NCBI GenBank assembly: GCA_964473565.1
Contig: CAYYPI010000002.1
Location: forward strand, 3,095 to 67,094
DNA: 64,000 nucleotides
DNA from: an uncultured Gammaproteobacteria bacterium
GTDB lineage: Bacteria > Patescibacteriota > Patescibacteriia > Patescibacteriales > UBA12465
Reading direction: 5' to 3'
The notes under the pieces are model-generated. The model saw only the letters and a program-made list of their open reading frames with translations. It was not told where the DNA came from and did not search any database. Made by a program: the position numbers and the translations under genes. This document shows, piece by piece, positions 56,927-64,000 of this stretch; the first letter of the stretch is position 1; each line of letters begins with the position of its first letter.

Positions 56927-57238
56927 TTAATCGTTTTGAGAGCCAGCAGAACCTTTTTTTAATCTTTTTTTATACTTATCCAGAACTTTATTTAAAGCAT
57001 CTTTTAAATCAATATCATAGGTATTAGCAATTGTTATCAAAGAAAATAAGACATCACCTAATTCAACTTTTAACTCTTGCCTATACTCAGATTTTTTCTT
57101 GCCATAATCACTCATCTTTAACACCTCTTTTGCTAACTCACCAAGCTCTGACATGGCATCCAGAACTCTGTGTTCAACTGATGTTTCCATATCATTTTCT
57201 TTGCAAAAGTCTTTTATTTTTTCTTGTATTTTTTTCAT
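56927..57238 (-). CDS. MazG-type nucleotide pyrophosphohydrolase
   Basis: About 100 aa, all-alpha. ELGELAKEV...ELGDVLFSL EExxE/D pattern. Confidence 0.7.
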   Translation of the reverse strand: MKKIQEKIKDFCKENDMETSVEHRVLDAMSELGELAKEVLKMSDYGKKKSEYRQELKVELGDVLFSLITIANTYDIDLKDALNKVLDKYKKRLKKGSAGSQND

Positions 57239-57246
57239 AGATAATT

Positions 57247-57753
57247 TTATCTAATTATCTTAACTTTAGCATAAAGGTGTGCATCAAAAAATTCATTTCC
57301 ATTTTTTATAACTTTTTTCATTGTTCCCTCTTTTTTATAGCCACACTTTATAGCCACCTTTTCACTAGCAATATTTCCAGGATTCATTAAAATTTCAATT
57401 CTATTTAATCCTAATTTCTCAAATCCAATCTTTTCAAGAATCTTTACAGCTTTAGTGGTAATTCCCTTTCCCCAATATTTCTCATCTAAGAAATAACCTA
57501 TTTCACCAATAAAAGTTCTATGTTGATTTATTTTAATTCCACACCCACCAACTACCTTGCCATTAAACAAAATAGCATAATTATATGATATATTATTTTT
57601 TCTCTTTTTAGTATTTTGTCTTAAAAAATCTTTTTCAGCTTCTACATCTTTTGGACAAATCTTAAGATACTTAAAATTAGGATTATTTAATATTTCATAA
57701 AACCTTTTTGCATCAGAGACTCTTTGATTTCTTAACTCAATTTTTTTTGACAT
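57247..57753 (-). CDS. GNAT acetyltransferase (RimJ/RimL-like)
   Basis: WGKGITTKAV motif and family layout. Confidence 0.8.
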   Translation of the reverse strand: MSKKIELRNQRVSDAKRFYEILNNPNFKYLKICPKDVEAEKDFLRQNTKKRKNNISYNYAILFNGKVVGGCGIKINQHRTFIGEIGYFLDEKYWGKGITTKAVKILEKIGFEKLGLNRIEILMNPGNIASEKVAIKCGYKKEGTMKKVIKNGNEFFDAHLYAKVKIIR

Positions 57754-57781
57754 ATAATTTATTTAAAAAATTATCTAATTT

Positions 57782-58051
57782 TTATTTATAAACTTTTTTT
57801 GCGTATATTAAATATAATACAAGTATAATATTAAACAAATAATTAATATAAAGCGGAAAATGTGTAATTTTTAATAATATATCGTCTATAACGATATAGG
57901 TAAAAGTGAGTATTTCCCCTAAAAGCCAAAAAATTAAAAACAGCCAGGATAAATCTCCTGCTTTCTTAGTTCTCCATGTTTGAATTACTTGTGGAACAGC
58001 GCATATTGCAAATAAAAATGCTCCGATCCAACCAATGTAATGATGTAACAT
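57782..58051 (-). CDS. PQ-loop (SemiSWEET-like) 3-TM membrane protein
   Basis: 89 aa with three helices and the AVPQVIQTWRTKKAGDLS PQ motif after TM1. Confidence 0.6.
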   Translation of the reverse strand: MLHHYIGWIGAFLFAICAVPQVIQTWRTKKAGDLSWLFLIFWLLGEILTFTYIVIDDILLKITHFPLYINYLFNIILVLYLIYAKKVYK

Positions 58052-58076
58052 ATTCTATAAATTATTAGATTTACTT

Positions 58077-58478
58077 TTACAATAAATCTAAAAGCTTCTT
58101 AATACTATTATGTGAAACCACGTATTTATCACTGAAAAATTCATCTTTTGTTACCCATTTATATTCAATTATATTTTCACCAGTAGGATTTTTTGTTAAA
58201 TCAATTTCATCATCAGCACTACATAAAAATGTAGTACAAATTACTTGACCCTTATCTTGTCTAAAAAACCAAAAAAAACCAATGGGTCTTAATATTTTAA
58301 CAGAAAGATTAACTTCTTCCTTAACTTCACGTACTAATGTGTCATAAGGAGATTCGCCATAATCAACCTTGCCACCAGGTAAATCCCAAGTATCCATATC
58401 TGATATTTTCTGTTTAATTACAAGAAATCTTTCTCCACGTTGGATTATTGCTTTAACTGCTGGGTATACACGATTCAT
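58077..58478 (-). CDS. NUDIX hydrolase
   Basis: Nudix box GGKVDYGESPYDTLVREVKEEVNL. Confidence 0.85.
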   Translation of the reverse strand: MNRVYPAVKAIIQRGERFLVIKQKISDMDTWDLPGGKVDYGESPYDTLVREVKEEVNLSVKILRPIGFFWFFRQDKGQVICTTFLCSADDEIDLTKNPTGENIIEYKWVTKDEFFSDKYVVSHNSIKKLLDLL

Positions 58479-58508
58479 ATTTTCTATTAATTAAATTAAA
58501 TATTTTCT

Positions 58509-59102
58509 TTATTCCCTTTTCCAATCACCATCATTAAACCTATTATTCGCTTTAAGATGCCAATCATGTGGATTTGAGTCCTGAATTTCTTTCCACATCT
58601 TTTTAGCTGTCTCTGTGAATAATGTTTCATATACTCTATCTCTTATAACTTGAAAATCTTCTTTAACCTTCACCCCGTTAACATATTGCTCTTGAAGCTC
58701 CATATCAACATCTAAATTATCAGCGTCTTTAACAATTTTGGCTTCTATAGACTGCCTATCTTCATATTCATTGAATATTTTCAGAAACTCATCTTCAACA
58801 CTAGTATCCTTCAATATATCATCAATTGCACCTTTATCATCTCTTTTTGTATACATTCTAGATAAATAATTGACATCTGAATTTCTTGATTCAACAATAT
58901 CATGCACTAGGGCCATTTTAATTACTTTATCAATATCAGCTTTTTCTTCCTTAGCAATTATAATAGCAGTCCAAATAACTCTAAAGATGTGCTCAGATAA
59001 ATTAGCAAAATCTTTATTTAGAAATTGCCTCCACATTCTTGGGATAAATCTCATGGTTCCAAGCTCATAAAGAAACTCTAAATTACGATTATGATTTTCC
59101 AT
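58509..59102 (-). CDS. HD-domain phosphohydrolase (YfbR-like 5'-deoxynucleotidase)
   Basis: SEHIFRV...ALVHDIVESRNSD H...HD...D pattern. Confidence 0.75.
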   Translation of the reverse strand: MENHNRNLEFLYELGTMRFIPRMWRQFLNKDFANLSEHIFRVIWTAIIIAKEEKADIDKVIKMALVHDIVESRNSDVNYLSRMYTKRDDKGAIDDILKDTSVEDEFLKIFNEYEDRQSIEAKIVKDADNLDVDMELQEQYVNGVKVKEDFQVIRDRVYETLFTETAKKMWKEIQDSNPHDWHLKANNRFNDGDWKRE

Positions 59103-59120
59103 ATTGTTTATTTTAAAAAT

Positions 59121-59155
59121 AAAAAAAGCACTAAATTATAATTTTAGTGCTTTTA
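59121..59155 (-). terminator. rho-independent terminator
   Basis: AAGCACTAAA / TTTAGTGCTT stem with a T-run on the minus strand. Confidence 0.65.
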
Positions 59156-59168
59156 AAAAACATAAATA

Positions 59169-59435
59169 TTAAACTTTTAGCTTTTCTAAAAGGTTGTTCC
59201 ATTTTCCTTCAATATCACTCATTAATTCATCAGATTTACTTTTTAAGTCTTCTACTTTGTCACCCCCTGCACTCTGTAATTCTTCCATCTTTGCCTTCAT
59301 TTCATCAAGCTTAGATTCTAATTCACCCATTTCGTCTTGATTTGAAATTTCCAAATCAGCTTTTTTCTCGGCAAGTTCTGCTTTAACTTTATCGTACTTA
59401 GCTTTTAATTTGTCTAAATAAGGTTGCATATCCAT
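59169..59435 (-). CDS. small acidic coiled-coil protein
   Basis: 88-aa ORF with a heptad-like K/E/L pattern. Confidence 0.4.
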   Translation of the reverse strand: MDMQPYLDKLKAKYDKVKAELAEKKADLEISNQDEMGELESKLDEMKAKMEELQSAGGDKVEDLKSKSDELMSDIEGKWNNLLEKLKV

Positions 59436-59629
59436 AAATTTAAAGTTAAGAATAATACATTATTATTATAACATACATAGAAAAAAGTGCAAAAAATAAC
59501 TTTTATATAGTTAAATAATATACTAAATTATATTCTTATTATATCCTCATAAAAAACATAAAAATCTCATATAAAGTTCACTCATGATCCGTAATTCGAG
59601 GTGCCGTGGAAAATTTTGTATCAAGTATT

Positions 59630-59650
59630 GTATATCCCAATGGATTATAG
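59630..59650. repeat. decayed remnant (element D) of the GC-rich cassette-boundary element
   Basis: GTATATCCCaatGGATTATAG compared with element B GTATATCCCttGTTATACG. Lies just 3' of the 59676 ORF stop. Confidence 0.25.
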
Positions 59651-59675
59651 TAAAACAAAGAAATTTGAAAAATAG

Positions 59676-60164
59676 TCACTTTGAATTTTTAATATATTCT
59701 TGAACAGCTTTTATATCAATCCTTTGATGATCACCTGACAACAATTTTTTATAGTTTATGAGATCACTTGGATTAATCACAGTCAACTTAATACCTTCAA
59801 AATATACTTTTTTTAATTTTGAAAAATTGGCAGGACTGTGTATCCATCTTTTAGAAAGATCATCAAATATTTTTTGATTATAAGCACCTCCAATATCTAT
59901 TTCTTGTCCAAGGTAGTTGAGTGTCATTAACTTCAAGTTCCATCTTTCATCTTTATAATTTTCAGGGCCTAAAATTATATAATCTTTTACTTTATCAAAA
60001 ATTTTTTCAAAATCATTTTCAGGAATATCTATGTCTATATCGTTCACCTCTCTCTTTGATCCATAAAGATGAGCTGCAAAACCACCAGAAATACGATATT
60101 GGATGTTATCTTTACTAAGGATATTAATAATCCAGCGAAGAGCTTGTAACTGTTTATTTTTCAT
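59676..60164 (-). CDS. nucleotidyltransferase-fold protein (Lnu/ANT-like minimal NTase)
   Basis: SGGFAAHLYGSKREVNDIDIDIP (G[GS]...DxD). Start placed at MKNKQL (60164) because the track's first 13 codons (to 60203) are built from the duplicated HD-gene tail. Confidence 0.55.
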   Translation of the reverse strand: MKNKQLQALRWIINILSKDNIQYRISGGFAAHLYGSKREVNDIDIDIPENDFEKIFDKVKDYIILGPENYKDERWNLKLMTLNYLGQEIDIGGAYNQKIFDDLSKRWIHSPANFSKLKKVYFEGIKLTVINPSDLINYKKLLSGDHQRIDIKAVQEYIKNSK

Positions 60165-60184
60165 TTTAGTATTTAAGTTGAGCC

Positions 60185-60325
60185 TTACTTTTTTCCATTC
60201 CATTCATCAAAGAATTCTTCAAGAAATAATTCCATAAATTTATGCCTTTTATCAGCCATCTTCTTTGCTGTTTCTGTATTCATATTTTCTTTTAATTTCA
60301 AAAGCTTACTATAAAGAAGATGATT
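60185..60325 (-). pseudogene. 3'-terminal fragment of an HD-hydrolase gene (duplicate of the 61931-62070 region)
   Basis: 60195-60313 matches 61941-62059 with 6 mismatches in 119 nt (hand alignment). It encodes ...YSKLLKLKENMNTETAKKMADKRHKFMELFLEEFFDEWNGKK* with no start or N-terminal domain. Confidence 0.7.
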
Positions 60326-60378
60326 TTCTGGAGTGATAACGGAAGAGAAACAAACACAATGACGTCTTGAGTTATAAA

Positions 60379-60693
60379 TTAGTCACTCCTTGTTTCCTCT
60401 AAAATAATTTTATTTTTAAATCCACCTCTTTTCTCTCTCTTTTTCAGCATAATCTGTTCTAATTCCTCAAATTTAATTCCTCTAAAAGCTAACATTGCAT
60501 GTATTACTTCCAATACATCTGCTAATTCTTCATCTATATTAGAATCCTCCAATACCTCATTAACTTCTTCTTGTAATTTAGCTTTCAATTTTACCCAATA
60601 TTCTGAATCATCTGCTATATGAGTCAGAGGAATAGATCCTTTATCTTTGATAATTTGAGGAATTTTATCTCTTACTAATTTATCGTATTTCAT
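60379..60693 (-). CDS. MazG-like all-alpha NTP pyrophosphohydrolase (COG4997-like)
   Basis: MKYDKLVRDKIP... and EELADVLEV typical of the family. Confidence 0.6.
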   Translation of the reverse strand: MKYDKLVRDKIPQIIKDKGSIPLTHIADDSEYWVKLKAKLQEEVNEVLEDSNIDEELADVLEVIHAMLAFRGIKFEELEQIMLKKREKRGGFKNKIILEETRSD

Positions 60694-60744
60694 ATTAAGG
60701 GTTTAAAAATGAAATTTATAATTATTATGACTAACTTATAATTT

Positions 60745-60898
60745 CGCACAACGTTTGCGGATATGAGAACTTGCAACCGTAGGAAGCAATTTGGGTGAGC
60801 CCCGAGCCGAGGGGCGAACCGGATACACCTTGTTATACGTCCCGCCGACTAAAAGGAGAAGAGTGTAGCGTGGTCGGAGCGAAGCGGAGAAGTTTAAA
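60745..60898. repeat. GC-rich structured boundary element A (attC-like)
   Basis: CGCACAAC-GTTTGC...TTTGGGTGA-[GCCCC gagccga GGGGC]-GAACC-ggatacac-ctt-GTTATACG, then a ~50-nt GC-rich hairpin region. Colinear with elements B and C. Confidence 0.6.
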
Positions 60899-60916
60899 TT
60901 ATTTTATGAAAATTCA

Positions 60917-61204
60917 TTATGTTAAAAACCTAATCAAATCAATTATTAAGCGAATTATTCCCATACCAACAATAATTTGCCACCTTCTTGTTATCAAAGA
61001 CAATAATATGATTAAAATCAAAATTGCTGGATATGTAAAATAATATAATTCAAGTCCAAAAGAAAAATCTAAAAATATAGGTGATGATTTGATAATAATA
61101 TTTATCATTTCAGCAAAAATAACTGCAATTACTCCAATAATTATATCAATCTTTTTTATTTTCTTTTCGGTGAGTTTATTATCTATTTGTTTAAAAATTT
61201 TCAT
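60917..61204 (-). CDS. small membrane protein
   Basis: 95 aa with 2-3 hydrophobic helices. Confidence 0.4.
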   Translation of the reverse strand: MKIFKQIDNKLTEKKIKKIDIIIGVIAVIFAEMINIIIKSSPIFLDFSFGLELYYFTYPAILILIILLSLITRRWQIIVGMGIIRLIIDLIRFLT

Positions 61205-61318
61205 AAAATAATCTAAAATACATATAATTAAAGTGCTATCTGAAGTTTTTGAAAACTCCTTATTAAAATTAATTATTTTTCAAAATTTTGTCTGAGAAAA
61301 TAAAAAAGAAAAAATCGT

Positions 61319-61597
61319 TTACTTTTTACTTCTTCTAATCTTATTAATTCCACCATATATTGATCCGAATGAAGCTAGAATTATTAACAAGCCAACAATT
61401 TTTTGAACAGTCATTAGTGCTAAGCCAAGAAAAATCATTAAAAAGCCTTGAACTAGAAATATGTAACCAACTTTTTTAGCGCCATACTTTATATCTGGTG
61501 GAAATTTTCCCCCAGTATAAACACCTGGTTGGTATTGTTTTTTTTGCCATTCATTTAAATCTTCTGAGTATTTTTGAGATTCACTTTTTTTATTCAT
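61319..61597 (-). CDS. small membrane protein
   Basis: 92 aa with two hydrophobic helices and a basic C-terminus. Confidence 0.4.
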   Translation of the reverse strand: MNKKSESQKYSEDLNEWQKKQYQPGVYTGGKFPPDIKYGAKKVGYIFLVQGFLMIFLGLALMTVQKIVGLLIILASFGSIYGGINKIRRSKK

Positions 61598-61812
61598 AGG
61601 TTTTTTCTTTTTTATTGTCGTAGCTAGATATCATATGTTGTGTGTAGCTGGTCTTCGCATTTATTTGAGCTTATTAGAACATTAATGCTTGATACGAACA
61701 TTGCATTTGAAGAAATAAGAAGACTAATTTCATATAACATTTGAGTGTATCTGAAGTTTCAGATACTTTTTTGATTTCTCATTATTATTTTATCATAAAA
61801 AAATACAAAAAA

Positions 61813-61927
61813 GAAGCTGAAATTTGGGTAAGCCCGAGTCGAGGGCTGAACCGTATATCCCTTGTTATACGAGGGTGAGGAGCGATAGCAACGAAAGCGC
61901 AGCGTCCCTCTAGCGTTTAAGTTTGGG
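61813..61927. repeat. GC-rich structured boundary element B (half-element)
   Basis: AATTTGGGTA-[AGCCC gagtcga GGGCT]-GAACC-gtatatcc-ctt-GTTATACG (61864-61871), a 44-nt GC-rich segment, then TTTAAGTTTGGG (61916-61927). It lacks the half that carries the second core in A and C. Confidence 0.6.
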
Positions 61928-61930
61928 CTG

Positions 61931-62593
61931 TTACTTCTTGCCATTCCATTCATCAAAGAATTCTTGAAGAAATAATTCCATAAATTTATGTCTTTCATTA
62001 GCCATTTTCTTAGCTGTTTCTGTATTCATATTTTCTTTTAATTTCAAAAGCTTACTATAGAAATGATGTACTGTTGAAGAATCTTTTTCAGATTCATCAA
62101 AACTATCTCTATCAAAAGGTTTTTCTGGAATCCACATGGGAACTTGATTTGCTCCACTAAATGAAAAAGTTCTTCCAATTCCAATTGCACCAATTGCATC
62201 TAAGTTATCAGCATCTTGTAAAACTAATGTTTCAATATCATTTACTGTTTTTCCATTTTCAGAAAAATTGTATTCTTCATGATATTCGACACAATGAAGA
62301 ACTTTTTCTTTTTGTTCTTCAGTTAAATTAGTTTTATCAAGAATTTCTTTAACTTTTGGTAATGAATCTTTTGGAGAGCAAAATTTTCCAGTTTCCTTTT
62401 GAATGATTCTATGAACATCATGTAAAAATGCAGAAACAGCAATAATTAACTTATCTCCACCTTCTTTTTCTTGAAGTGTTAAAGCAGTATTCATAGTACG
62501 CTTTAAATGATAAATATCATGTCCGCTACTTTCTTCATGAAAAAGAACTTTTACTTCTTTTTCAAGCTGATGAATTATTTCTTCCATAAACAT
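61931..62593 (-). CDS. HD-domain phosphohydrolase (YpgQ-like)
   Basis: SGHDIYHLKRT...AFLHDVHR...DADNLDAIGAIG. Start moved to MFMEE (62593, or 62587) because the track's TTG start at 62767 reads through element C. Confidence 0.75.
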   Translation of the reverse strand: MFMEEIIHQLEKEVKVLFHEESSGHDIYHLKRTMNTALTLQEKEGGDKLIIAVSAFLHDVHRIIQKETGKFCSPKDSLPKVKEILDKTNLTEEQKEKVLHCVEYHEEYNFSENGKTVNDIETLVLQDADNLDAIGAIGIGRTFSFSGANQVPMWIPEKPFDRDSFDESEKDSSTVHHFYSKLLKLKENMNTETAKKMANERHKFMELFLQEFFDEWNGKK

Positions 62594-62630
62594 AGATAGA
62601 TGAATGGTTATTAATAAATTTTCGGTTATA

Positions 62631-62745
62631 CCCAAACTTAAATGTCGTATAACGTTCGCGTATATCTGATGTTGCGACCGAAGGGAGCCATATGGGTGAG
62701 CATTTGCCGTTAAGCAAGCGCGAACCAGATATACGCTGTTAGCTG
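62631..62745. repeat. GC-rich structured boundary element C (attC-like)
   Basis: CCCAAACTTAAA-tgt-CGTATAAC-GTTCGC...ATATGGGTGA-[GCATTTGC cgttaa GCAAGCGC]-GAACC-agatatac-gct-GTTAGCTG. Also the internal 11-bp inverted repeat GCGTATATCTG / CAGATATACGC. Confidence 0.6.
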
Positions 62746-62854
62746 ATGTATTCCTTTTCTTTTCCAACGATAGTCAGTTGTTTTAAAAATTTTCAAATTT
62801 CTTTTTCCGTACCCAAAACACCACTTTCTGTTTGAGGGAGGAGCAAGAGGGGAA

Positions 62855-62875
62855 CAAAAGGGGTGAATTGCCCCG
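62855..62875 (-). terminator. weak terminator-like hairpin after the ATPase ORF
   Basis: GGGG-caattca-CCCC followed by TTTTG on the minus strand. The stem is only 4 bp. Confidence 0.3.
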
Positions 62876-62889
62876 ACCGAAAACATTCC

Positions 62890-64000
62890 CTATTTGTTCA
62901 ATAAATATTTCCTTTCTCGTTGCCTAAAGGCTTCCTCTCCGCCTTCAAGAATATCTCTGATATTTTTGTTTATTTCGGGGTTTTCAATGCTTCCTGCTAA
63001 ATAGTCCAATTCTTGATCTAGTCTTGCTACGATTATTTGTTCAGCATCCGCATTAACTACCAGATTGGCGTTGTGGGTTGACATTATGATTTGCCTTGAT
63101 TGTTTGGCCTTCCGGATTAGTGGAACAAGCTCATTCATTATGAAGTTGTTATCAAGGTTGTCTTCGGGCTGATCTATAATGAACACTTGTTTTGCAGTTG
63201 CGGTAGCTAAATAGACTTTTAGTAACAGCGTTCCTCTTTGTCCGATTGATAAAATTTCCGTTGCCTTTCCATTTAATTTCGCAATTGCTTTTACTCCCAA
63301 GAAGTCAGCCCATTCAGTGAATATATAATATGTAATTCCGCTGATTCCATCACGGCTAAAGCATTTTTGTTCACTTAAATCAGTTTTTTGTATCCATACT
63401 GATAGATTTTCAAAAGTTATTTCTCGGGGTGTTCCATCTTCATTTGTACCGGCTATCATTTTTTTCAGATCAGTTTCATTTGCCACTTTCCGATTATCTA
63501 GGAAATCATCCAACACACGTTTAGCAAATTTTTTGAAATTAAATTCAATTTTTCCCTCAACTTCAATACCTTTGATAATTTTATCGAATAGTTCCTTTTC
63601 TTCGACTGTTGAATCATCGCGTGAATTTTGAAAATCTTGAAATGCTTGCGTTATAGCATTTTTTAGGGCAAGCAATGAATTACTAATTTGTTCCAAAATT
63701 TTTCTTCTTTCATCGTGTAAGTCCGTCAATTGTTTTTTTGACTGCTTGTAACTTTCAATATCTTTTCCAATGTTGCTTATTTGGCGTTGTAAATTTTCAC
63801 TGGCTTGTAATAGAGTGTTAACGTCTTCCTTGATACCCTGTTCAATAAGTTTCTTTTTTAAGGCGATAATTTCATCTCTCAATTGTTTCATATCTTCCTC
63901 AATTTTTGCCTGTAATTCGCTTAGTATTTTTGTCTGCTTGCTAACATCTAGCCCTTCAATTAGATCATTGTCAGGGTAGTGTTCTTTTAAAATGACGTTG
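62890..64000 (-). CDS. SMC/Rad50-like ABC-type ATPase, C-terminal part (5' end lies beyond the window)
   Basis: The frame stays open upstream of the track's ATG to position 64000. Coiled-coil stretch, then signature-like LSIGQRG, Walker B FIIDQPEDNLD and H-loop STHNANL. Confidence 0.75.
   Translation of the reverse strand, partial: NVILKEHYPDNDLIEGLDVSKQTKILSELQAKIEEDMKQLRDEIIALKKKLIEQGIKEDVNTLLQASENLQRQISNIGKDIESYKQSKKQLTDLHDERRKILEQISNSLLALKNAITQAFQDFQNSRDDSTVEEKELFDKIIKGIEVEGKIEFNFKKFAKRVLDDFLDNRKVANETDLKKMIAGTNEDGTPREITFENLSVWIQKTDLSEQKCFSRDGISGITYYIFTEWADFLGVKAIAKLNGKATEILSIGQRGTLLLKVYLATATAKQVFIIDQPEDNLDNNFIMNELVPLIRKAKQSRQIIMSTHNANLVVNADAEQIIVARLDQELDYLAGSIENPEINKNIRDILEGGEEAFRQRERKYLLNK

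Follow-up and report, generated by a model that had tools for sequence, protein, structure and literature searches.

Integrons such as those of class 1, or those of Vibrio with their Vibrio cholerae repeats (VCR), are the described systems that come closest to the locus analyzed here, and they share with it arrays of co-oriented short open reading frames (ORFs) separated by imperfectly palindromic sites (attC), with AAC/GTT R boxes and an inner L stem. The additional domain of the integron integrase IntI, and the extrahelical bases that this domain reads, are regarded as enabling recombination in integrons. A second point of comparison is CTX phage, one of the integrative mobile elements exploiting Xer (IMEX), which integrates at dif as a folded single-stranded hairpin. 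In archaea, integrons whose IntIs have the additional domain and whose attC sites have the usual fold have been described (Ghaly et al., 2022, PMC9668308), and in Acinetobacter genes lying between Xer-type sites, known as pdif modules, move between replicons according to one report (bioRxiv 10.1101/2024.04.09.588662). Here we analyze a stretch of 64,000 nt (hereafter the window) of a contig assigned to an uncultured Gammaproteobacteria bacterium, placed by GTDB in Patescibacteriota (assembly GCA_964473565.1, contig CAYYPI010000002.1, positions 3,095 to 67,094), near the end of which a gene for an HD-domain phosphohydrolase is bracketed by nested perfect inverted repeats. We consider it very probable that a mobile cassette, part of an array similar to those of integrons, carries this gene as its cargo, and that the nested repeats are the two halves of its one hairpin site, split on integration; the site type itself is probably an undescribed variant of those of integrons.

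The repeats consist of an 8-mer pair, GTTATACG (61864-61871) and CGTATAAC (62646-62653), and a 12-mer pair, TTTAAGTTTGGG (61916-61927) and CCCAAACTTAAA (62631-62642), the members of each being exact reverse complements. On the left the two are separated by a GC-rich segment of 44 nt (61872-61915) and on the right by the trinucleotide TGT (62643-62645). All of this is as described in the initial annotation of the locus, which also rightly stated that the repeats enclose nothing but the HD ORF (61931-62590, minus strand; 219 aa; Pfam HD PF01966, E = 1.3e-9) and its 40-nt leader. The same annotation had taken the 12-mer for a motif recurring at boundaries, and here the results point the other way. 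No third exact copy exists in the window, and when up to two mismatches are allowed the matches number 13, where shuffled sequence gives an expectation of 15.4, so that the 12-mer is not a general motif of this genome; the outer arms to which it belongs vary between cassettes; a GTTTAAA behind the first of the elements described below, cited as a half-motif, is the start of the 22-nt arm of a different cassette; and the resemblance at 60172-60184 arises because the fragment that begins there comes from another copy of the HD cassette, now decayed and with a diverged arm. The 8-mer, in turn, occurs four times in the window (0.54 expected), and three of these occurrences lie inside three related elements, A, B and C.

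These elements are found in the last 3.3 kb of the window as three GC-rich islands on a background of 30% GC that align with one another. A degenerate pattern, built from the right half shared by A, B and C, was scanned on one-genome-per-species assemblies and matched 67 genome contigs (L001-L067), where, roughly estimated, far less than one match would be expected by chance, while none of the viral contigs scanned with it matched. The bacterial hosts include Patescibacteria of the candidate phyla radiation (CPR), Atribacterota, Omnitrophota, Desulfobacteraceae and metagenome-assembled genomes (MAGs) labelled Gammaproteobacteria; the archaeal ones are Woese-, Pace- and Nanoarchaeota (DPANN), Methanocellales, Methanophagales, Methanobacteriaceae and Altiarchaeales. 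A covariance model, R1, run on the window and the 67 loci identified 186 element copies, mostly in same-strand arrays (ten copies in L036, nine in L049 and eight in L037), with a median spacing of 713 nt and usually a single short ORF between neighboring copies; where an interval has a dominant ORF, this runs opposite to the element strand in 74 of 77 cases. This array architecture is a direct observation. Copies are also often located near contig ends, within about 150 nt in L004, L021, L030, L054, L064 and others, which suggests that the elements break metagenome assemblies, and arrays are probably under-represented in MAGs.

The copies have a common layout, which begins with ...yAyAAC GTTyGC, the L'' arm, (A/T)GTT, a variable hairpin 1 and ATwTGGGTGAGC, and continues with a variable hairpin 2, GCGAACC, the L' arm and ..TGTTA followed by four variable nucleotides. 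In their RNAalifold consensus an L stem of 10 bp closes a three-way junction, and in alignments A2 and A4 the AAC and GTTA are invariant and an L stem of 10-11 bp covaries. In 106 copies, 94.9% of the cells are paired, compared with 68.9% in shuffles and 32-47% when the partners are slid, although these percentages are inflated, alignment A4 having been fitted to model R1; 22 of the 24 base pairs change on both sides. Several features of this core set it apart from the attC sites of integrons. Where the latter have a variable terminal loop, there is here a three-way junction conserved in sequence, the motifs ATwTGGGTrAGC and GCGAACC of which are invariant across phyla; the L stem is continuous in the consensus, without extrahelical bases, and the spacer next to it is not roughly symmetric but a 4-by-1 loop (5' GTTy against 3' T); and the core is nearly identical across bacterial and archaeal phyla. 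We did not find this site type described in the literature on integrons and attC sites, of which our coverage was partial, so that a prior description is possible, and the core motifs were not found in the searchable part of the supplementary text of Ghaly et al. (2022, PMC9668308).

R1 gave three matches in the window, all on the plus strand. Element A, an attC-like core and the lowest-coordinate copy (60743-60839; 64.4 bits and fold), has the boxes R'' CGCACAAC (60745-60752) and R' GTTATACG (60832-60839), the boxes being named on the match strand as nnnnnAAC (R'') and GTTnnnnn (R'). Element B (61729-61871; 46.8 bits, E = 3.9e-8) is the attC-like core of the site of the HD cassette, with R'' CATATAAC at 61731-61738 and R' GTTATACG at 61864-61871, the latter being the left 8-mer. 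Element C (62644-62745; 100.9 bits and fold) is the core of the next site; its R'' is the right 8-mer, CGTATAAC at 62646-62653, its R' is GTTAGCTG at 62738-62745, and its L stem, GCGTATATCTG / CAGATATACGC, is perfect. The end of each element could thus be compared with the start of the following one: the R boxes pair at 8 of 8 positions from B to C, and at 7 of 8 from A to B.

The same comparison across the family revealed a rule. Between R' of one element and R'' of the next there were no mismatches in the five variable positions in 50 of 95 consecutive pairs, whereas a perfect match was found in 5 of 158 cases within one element and in 124 of 2000 random pairs (6%). Complementarity of the end of an element to the start of its successor is the hallmark of integron cassettes. 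There the initial bases of each cassette are complementary to R'' of the site that it carries, which points to a crossover at G|TT, or AA|C when the bottom strand is read. With the crossover just 3' of the variable part of R'', every site in an array is a hybrid, and the two halves of a cassette's own R box come to lie at its two ends.

A second rule concerns the sequences outside the R boxes. For the 68 cassettes with matched R boxes, the longest complementary run was searched for between the 30 nt upstream of R'' of the following element and the 150 nt downstream of R' of the preceding one. A cognate run of at least 10 nt, reaching up to 24 nt, was present in 55 of the 68, while in 1301 non-cognate controls the mode was 6-7 nt and only 10 had 11 nt or more. 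Set against these figures, the pairing at the HD locus is well outside what chance would produce. On the R'' side the run almost always starts exactly 3 nt outside the box, and on the R' side it starts either 3 nt past the box or past a GC-rich insert of 42-65 nt, such tails between R' and outer arm being present in about 40% of the cassettes. The HD cassette, with a gap of 3 and an offset of 44, is typical of this set: its right 12-mer, the 5' arm of the outer stem on the plus strand, begins 3 nt outside R'' with the spacer TGT in between, its left 12-mer is the 3' arm, and the 44-nt segment occupies the position of the other tails and folds as a separate side hairpin (AGGG...CCCT) containing mini-hairpins of the GCGNAGC type. 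The rule is seen again within the window, where pairs of 22, 19 and 14 nt, the last with one mismatch, surround other ORFs. The hairpin of this type of site would accordingly extend past the R box by another 10-24 bp, in many cases accompanied by a GC-rich side hairpin of 16-65 nt, which is a further difference from integrons.

That the 12-mer extends the R-box stem in a single-stranded or circularized cassette, as had been proposed from the HD locus, is in this way found to be general in the family, and it is backed as well by the compensatory changes and the junction fold presented below. The other proposal, that the repeats have the geometry of an invertible or excisable segment, was only in part upheld, for excision in the integron sense. 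If the repeats were the crossover sites of a recombinase that flips the gene, as in shufflons or fim-type switches, a perfect inverted repeat around a single ORF is the geometry to be found. They are not two full inverted sites, however, but half-sites of one hairpin the other parts of which lie outside, and about 55 other cassettes with unrelated arms are built alike; the elements flanking each cassette are direct and not inverted; and the orientation of gene to element is uniform in the arrays (74 of 77) and is the same in L069 and L071, the two relatives of the HD cassette, admittedly a small sample, in which a neighboring element is detectable. We therefore hold inversion to be highly improbable.

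The relatives of the HD cassette define its boundaries. A scan of metagenomes with the HD protein yielded 71 loci, with relatives at 51-93% identity, and an exact look-up of the protein in the contig index returned no record. In six of these loci (L068, L070, L071, L072, L078 and L135) homology to the window ends at 62652-62656, that is, at CGTATAA|C within element C; the other end falls at 61860-61863 or 61912-61931, and the flanks differ between loci. Both the cassette boundaries and the polymorphism of context are therefore seen directly, one cassette being found in different surroundings, and by them the CGTATAA of element C is part of the HD cassette, with the likely crossover after 62652. 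The repeats themselves vary in a concerted way. L068 has 14-nt arms and an R box identical to that of the window, while L071 has the arms of the window and an R box changed to GTTAGGCG / CGGCTAAC, complementary at 7 of 8 positions. In L078 and L079 the R box is GTTGTAAG / CTTACAAC and the arms are TTTAAGCTTGA / TCAAGCTTAAA, which are compensatory changes in both repeats. The homologous tails of L068, L071 and L078 differ in length, that of L078 and L079 being of 16 nt only.

The presence of the HD unit in several contexts could also be expected of a small transposon or miniature inverted-repeat transposable element (MITE), the repeats being then its terminal inverted repeats. We find this barely credible, since there is neither a target-site duplication nor a transposase, the boundaries fall at the conserved AA|C of a site common to the neighboring cassettes, the arms lie inside these boundaries and covary with each other, and the units form ordered arrays adjoining a gene for a tyrosine recombinase.

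Several observations identify the strand on which the site would fold. In 93 of 106 copies hairpin 1 retains a G-T wobble, which is never replaced by A-C. In the element regions of L001-L067 and the window the motif GCGNAGC occurs 142 times on the folded strand and once for its complement, whereas elsewhere in the loci the numbers are 76 and 73; tails and hairpin loops are composed of mini-hairpins of this motif, and d(GCGAAGC) is an unusually stable DNA mini-hairpin. Because of this strand asymmetry in wobble, in ORF orientation and in GCGNAGC, the plus strand of the window is taken as the folded bottom strand, and the data are consistent with folding of the strand opposite to the genes, as with the bottom strand of integron attC sites. 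A crossover at the 3' R box on the plus strand was also considered, and is ruled out by the co-inheritance of tails and cores together with the same three asymmetries. When the junction of the excised circle was reconstituted (62622-62652 joined to 61738-61935) and folded as DNA, it reached -36.8 kcal/mol (z = -4.97; none of 200 shuffles did as well). In this fold the outer stem has 13 bp and the R stem 10 bp, the tail forms a side hairpin, and the inner hairpins are present; the hybrid site as it stands in the window gave -26.7 kcal/mol (z = -2.83).

Strong covariation and conserved junction nucleotides are equally what would be found in a structured RNA, such as an element of an untranslated region, a terminator or an antisense RNA, in which the repeats would pair as RNA. 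This explanation is very improbable in our opinion. Rfam returned only four tRNAs and noise, both at gathering thresholds in the whole window and at permissive E-values in 60650-62950, and thus no matching family; the best fold is formed by the strand antisense to the ORFs, and GCGNAGC is a stable motif of DNA. Cognate partners, moreover, have a whole gene between them, at distances of 0.3-3.7 kb, and change partner at AA|C, which is a signature of recombination and cannot be an RNA fold. Hammerhead and other ribozymes, domain V of group II introns, ends of IS200/IS605, retrons and bridge RNAs were each considered and discarded, as none agrees with the nucleotides conserved in the elements and none accounts for cognate pairing across whole genes.

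In eight of the related loci (L006, L012, L023, L026, L029, L049, L051 and L052) the array is accompanied by a gene for a tyrosine recombinase of 269-287 aa, frameshifted in one case. In every case side and strand are those predicted, the gene being divergent from the cassettes as in integrons, and an exact 8-nt complement of the R' of the last element is present in all eight, 76-130 nt upstream of the start codon, so that the linkage between arrays and recombinase genes is a plain observation in these other genomes. Before this attI-like junction there is a spacer and an outer arm, and after it the sequence is no longer that of an attC but AAC T(G/C)(G/C)TT.... The sequence past the junction, AAC TsGTTwTTATrC..., resembles a brief inverted counterpart of the R'' arm (yATAA ... 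TTAT), much like the palindrome inside dif sites. The attI-like site could thus be just a duplex site of Xer type.

Among solved structures the integrase VchIntIA (PDB 2a3v) scored best with these recombinases, with the alignment falling into two pieces that skip approximately residues 212-241, and with the integron integrase model TIGR02249 they reached 196-222 bits (cut-off 265), again in two stretches; with the XerA model they were near the cut-off. The skipping of some 30 aa in two-piece alignments means that the additional domain specific to IntI is absent. At E <= 1e-30 the family comprises at least 6797 proteins, consistently of about 270 aa and annotated as XerD, XerA, tyrosine recombinase or 'tyrosine recombinase/integron integrase'.

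These recombinases bear on whether the array could be an ordinary sedentary chromosomal integron, with long attC sites and a canonical IntI encoded elsewhere, the short recombinases nearby being unrelated Xer genes. The cassettes follow exactly the logic of integrons, in about half of the arrays the sequence at hand contains no recombinase, and from Woesearchaeales, Pacearchaeales and other archaea both integrons and clusters of attC sites without integrase are on record (PMC9668308). We nevertheless regard this as unlikely. The recombinases linked to arrays are of the short type in eight out of eight cases, aligning end to end without the 30-aa insertion, and each has the predicted side and strand and, 76-130 nt upstream, an exact R-box junction; no canonical IntI was seen in the 67 loci; and the site, besides lacking extrahelical bases, has the conserved three-way junction in place of the variable terminal structure of a canonical attC.

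An integron-like cassette of a probably new kind thus remains our preferred explanation, and its working can be outlined as follows. On the plus strand of the window the complete site would consist of an outer arm, 3 nt, R'' (nnnnnAAC), GTTyGC, L'', and a three-way junction formed by hairpin 1, ATwTGGGTGAGC, hairpin 2 and GCGAACC, followed by L', TGTTnnnnn (R'), 3 nt or a GC-rich tail, and the second outer arm. A tyrosine recombinase would exchange strands inside the AA|C of R''. Once integrated, the cassette would then have the outer arm, the 3 nt and nnnnnAA at one of its termini (62631-62652), with the remainder of the site at the opposite terminus (61738-61927). If the sites of B and C recombined, a circle of 915 bp would be released. 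In it the R box of 8 bp and the outer stem of 12 bp would form again and the junction would read ...CCCAAACTTAAATGTCGTATAA|CATTTGAGTGTATCTG..., and recombination of this circle with the attI-like site beside a recombinase gene would result in its insertion elsewhere. Folding as a single strand in vivo, the exact bond cleaved, and resolution by replication are steps that we infer. The recombinase of about 270 aa, related to IntI and Xer but without the IntI domain, would be the enzyme of the arrays.

A number of observations weigh against this explanation, apart from the inflation of the pairing percentages mentioned above. The window contains three elements only, and neither a recombinase gene nor an attI-like site was found in its 64 kb; by the orientation rule, the recombinase gene of its array would lie beyond 64000. 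Around half of the arrays with enough flanking sequence have no recombinase nearby, and where there is one it is linked to the array by position only. Mobility of the HD cassette is deduced from comparison with other metagenomes, and neither an excised circle nor an empty site was observed; an adjoining element is missing from most HD homologues, some at about 82% identity among them. Finally, the own site of the HD cassette, element B, may be impaired, since its L arms do not pair.

With respect to the homologues, R1 matched only 2 of 43 loci, and inspection revealed diverged or deleted sites in some of them, so that the model under-detects the family; the more distant homologues are arm-less and look like ordinary genes. 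One diverged site, at 2318-2447 of L070 and upstream of an HD cassette, has L arms GGAATTTAACG / CGTTAAATTCC, the junction GAAACC..GGTTTCCCAAAT and extra hairpins. As R1 misses it, the family must be wider than the 186 copies found.

The lack of pairing between L'' and L' is shared by elements A and B and by those of L001, L002/L022, L027, L038 and L048, and is due to their halves coming from different subtypes; element B is therefore chimeric. Such mismatches could be the result of homologous exchange in the conserved center of 33 nt, of another mode of crossover, or of chimerism in the assemblies. L001 and L002 resemble the reciprocal products of such an event. In other respects element B is complete. 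It has a long inner hairpin 1, of about 80 nt, and the conserved junction ATTTGGGTAAGC / CTGAACC, in a layout that matches those of L005, L012, L015 and L031. That it might be truncated at the 5' end was ruled out, as it is full length with a long hairpin 1 like those of L005 and L012.

Taken in a broader frame, the arrays may constitute a distinct integron-like platform that spans both domains, with an Xer-type recombinase lacking the IntI domain, an attI-like and possibly dif-like site, and cassette sites in the form of long hairpins, the additional domain having been either never acquired or lost; this is a tentative proposal, to which we give somewhat less than even chances. As in the archaeal integrons, cassette arrays are present in DPANN and methanogen-related archaea, and a sharing of cassettes across domains was proposed there too (PMC9668308). 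The parallels with IMEX are an Xer-type recombinase without the IntI insertion, a folded strand with two binding arms and an unpaired center, and tandem accumulation at one site, while the cargo here consists of single promoterless ORFs in long arrays rather than phage genomes. Like pdif modules, the cassettes would be genes moved between sites of Xer type, but pdif sites are 28-bp duplexes in inverted orientation and the sites described here are long structured hairpins in direct orientation. If the proposal is true, the platform would be a sister or an ancestor of integrons, or a bridge to Xer-dependent integrative elements, and would join CPR bacteria, DPANN archaea, methanogens and other anaerobes in a shared pool of cassettes. 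Arrays with the bookkeeping of integrons appear to work without the additional domain or extrahelical bases, and a conserved three-way junction and a longer stem appear to stand in for them, linked to a plain Xer-like enzyme. The HD locus gains a precise annotation, with the ends of a 915-bp cassette, the likely bond of crossover and the strand that folds. Confirmation would bear on the origin of integrons from Xer-type recombinases, offer a new site model for integron-finding software, and expose a pool of gene exchange among the least understood bacteria and archaea.

The remainder of the window has the character of ordinary chromosome, gyrB, clpB and FGAM synthase being among its genes. Between 56.9 and 62.6 kb all ORFs are short and on the minus strand, and encode MazG, GNAT, PQ-loop, NUDIX, HD_3, an ANT(2'')-like nucleotidyltransferase, a MazG-like protein, two small membrane proteins and the HD protein. 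This segment (56927-62590) is rich in enzymes of nucleotide 'house-cleaning' or modification (two MazG-type, NUDIX, two HD-domain, nucleotidyltransferase and GNAT proteins), and recognizable sites remain in its last three or four units only. The low-coordinate end of the array looks decayed. At 60172-60340 (plus strand) alignment A3 identifies the decayed second copy of the 3' end of the HD cassette, made up of the diverged outer arm TTTAAGTTGAGCC and the last 50 or so codons of the gene, truncated at the 5' end and 85-91% identical to the HD cassettes of L068-L079; an attC core was found on neither side of it, and the nucleotidyltransferase gene follows directly downstream. The next unit (60372-60741, plus strand), recognized by its arms and by Pfam, is the remnant of a MazG-like cassette. 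Its arms, 60372-60385 and 60728-60741, complementary at 13 of 14 nt, bracket the ORF at 60379-60693 on the minus strand, and its right arm is followed by TTT and the R'' of element A, the site on the left having been lost.

Behind element A, its tail (60840-60892) and the outer arm TTTAAATTATTTTATGAAAATT (60893-60914), together 60840-60914 on the plus strand, lead into the inverted repeat I1, the arms of which (60893-60914 and 61196-61217; 22 nt, 95% complementary) bracket a small membrane-protein ORF at 60917-61204 on the minus strand; the partner arm is continued by the remnant of a truncated element, ACATATAAT TAAAGT GCTATCTG AAGTT (61196-61250 in all, plus strand). A second small cassette-like unit (61296-61619, plus strand) is delimited by inverted repeat I2 (61296-61314 and 61601-61619; 19 nt, 95% complementary) and encloses another membrane-protein ORF, 61319-61597 on the minus strand; an intact R box was not found behind it.

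On the other side of the HD cassette, the start of the next cassette on the folded strand (62746-62889, plus strand) consists of the spacer ATG, the outer arm TATTCCTTTTCTTTT (62749-62763), a mini-hairpin, and a conserved module, AT-rich and then G-rich, that leads to the stop codon of an ORF for an AAA_21/SMC-like ATPase (Pfam; minus strand, from 62890 to beyond 64000, where it runs off the window). Judged by the flanking arm and module, this ORF appears to be the next cassette of the array. The same sequence of about 150 nt is present behind elements in L003, L016, L032, L049, L057, L061 and L062, and in L003 and L062 the partner of the TATTCCTTTTCTTTT-type arm, AAAAGAAAAGGAATA-TTT-CAGCTAAC, is also present. 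The module between outer arm and ORF stop, of about 100-150 nt (62780-62889 in the window), has GAGGGG..GGGGTGAA as its G-rich part, is sometimes contained within a long perfect hairpin and is common to cassettes with different ORFs; related modules are also found in L001, L014, L018 and L067.

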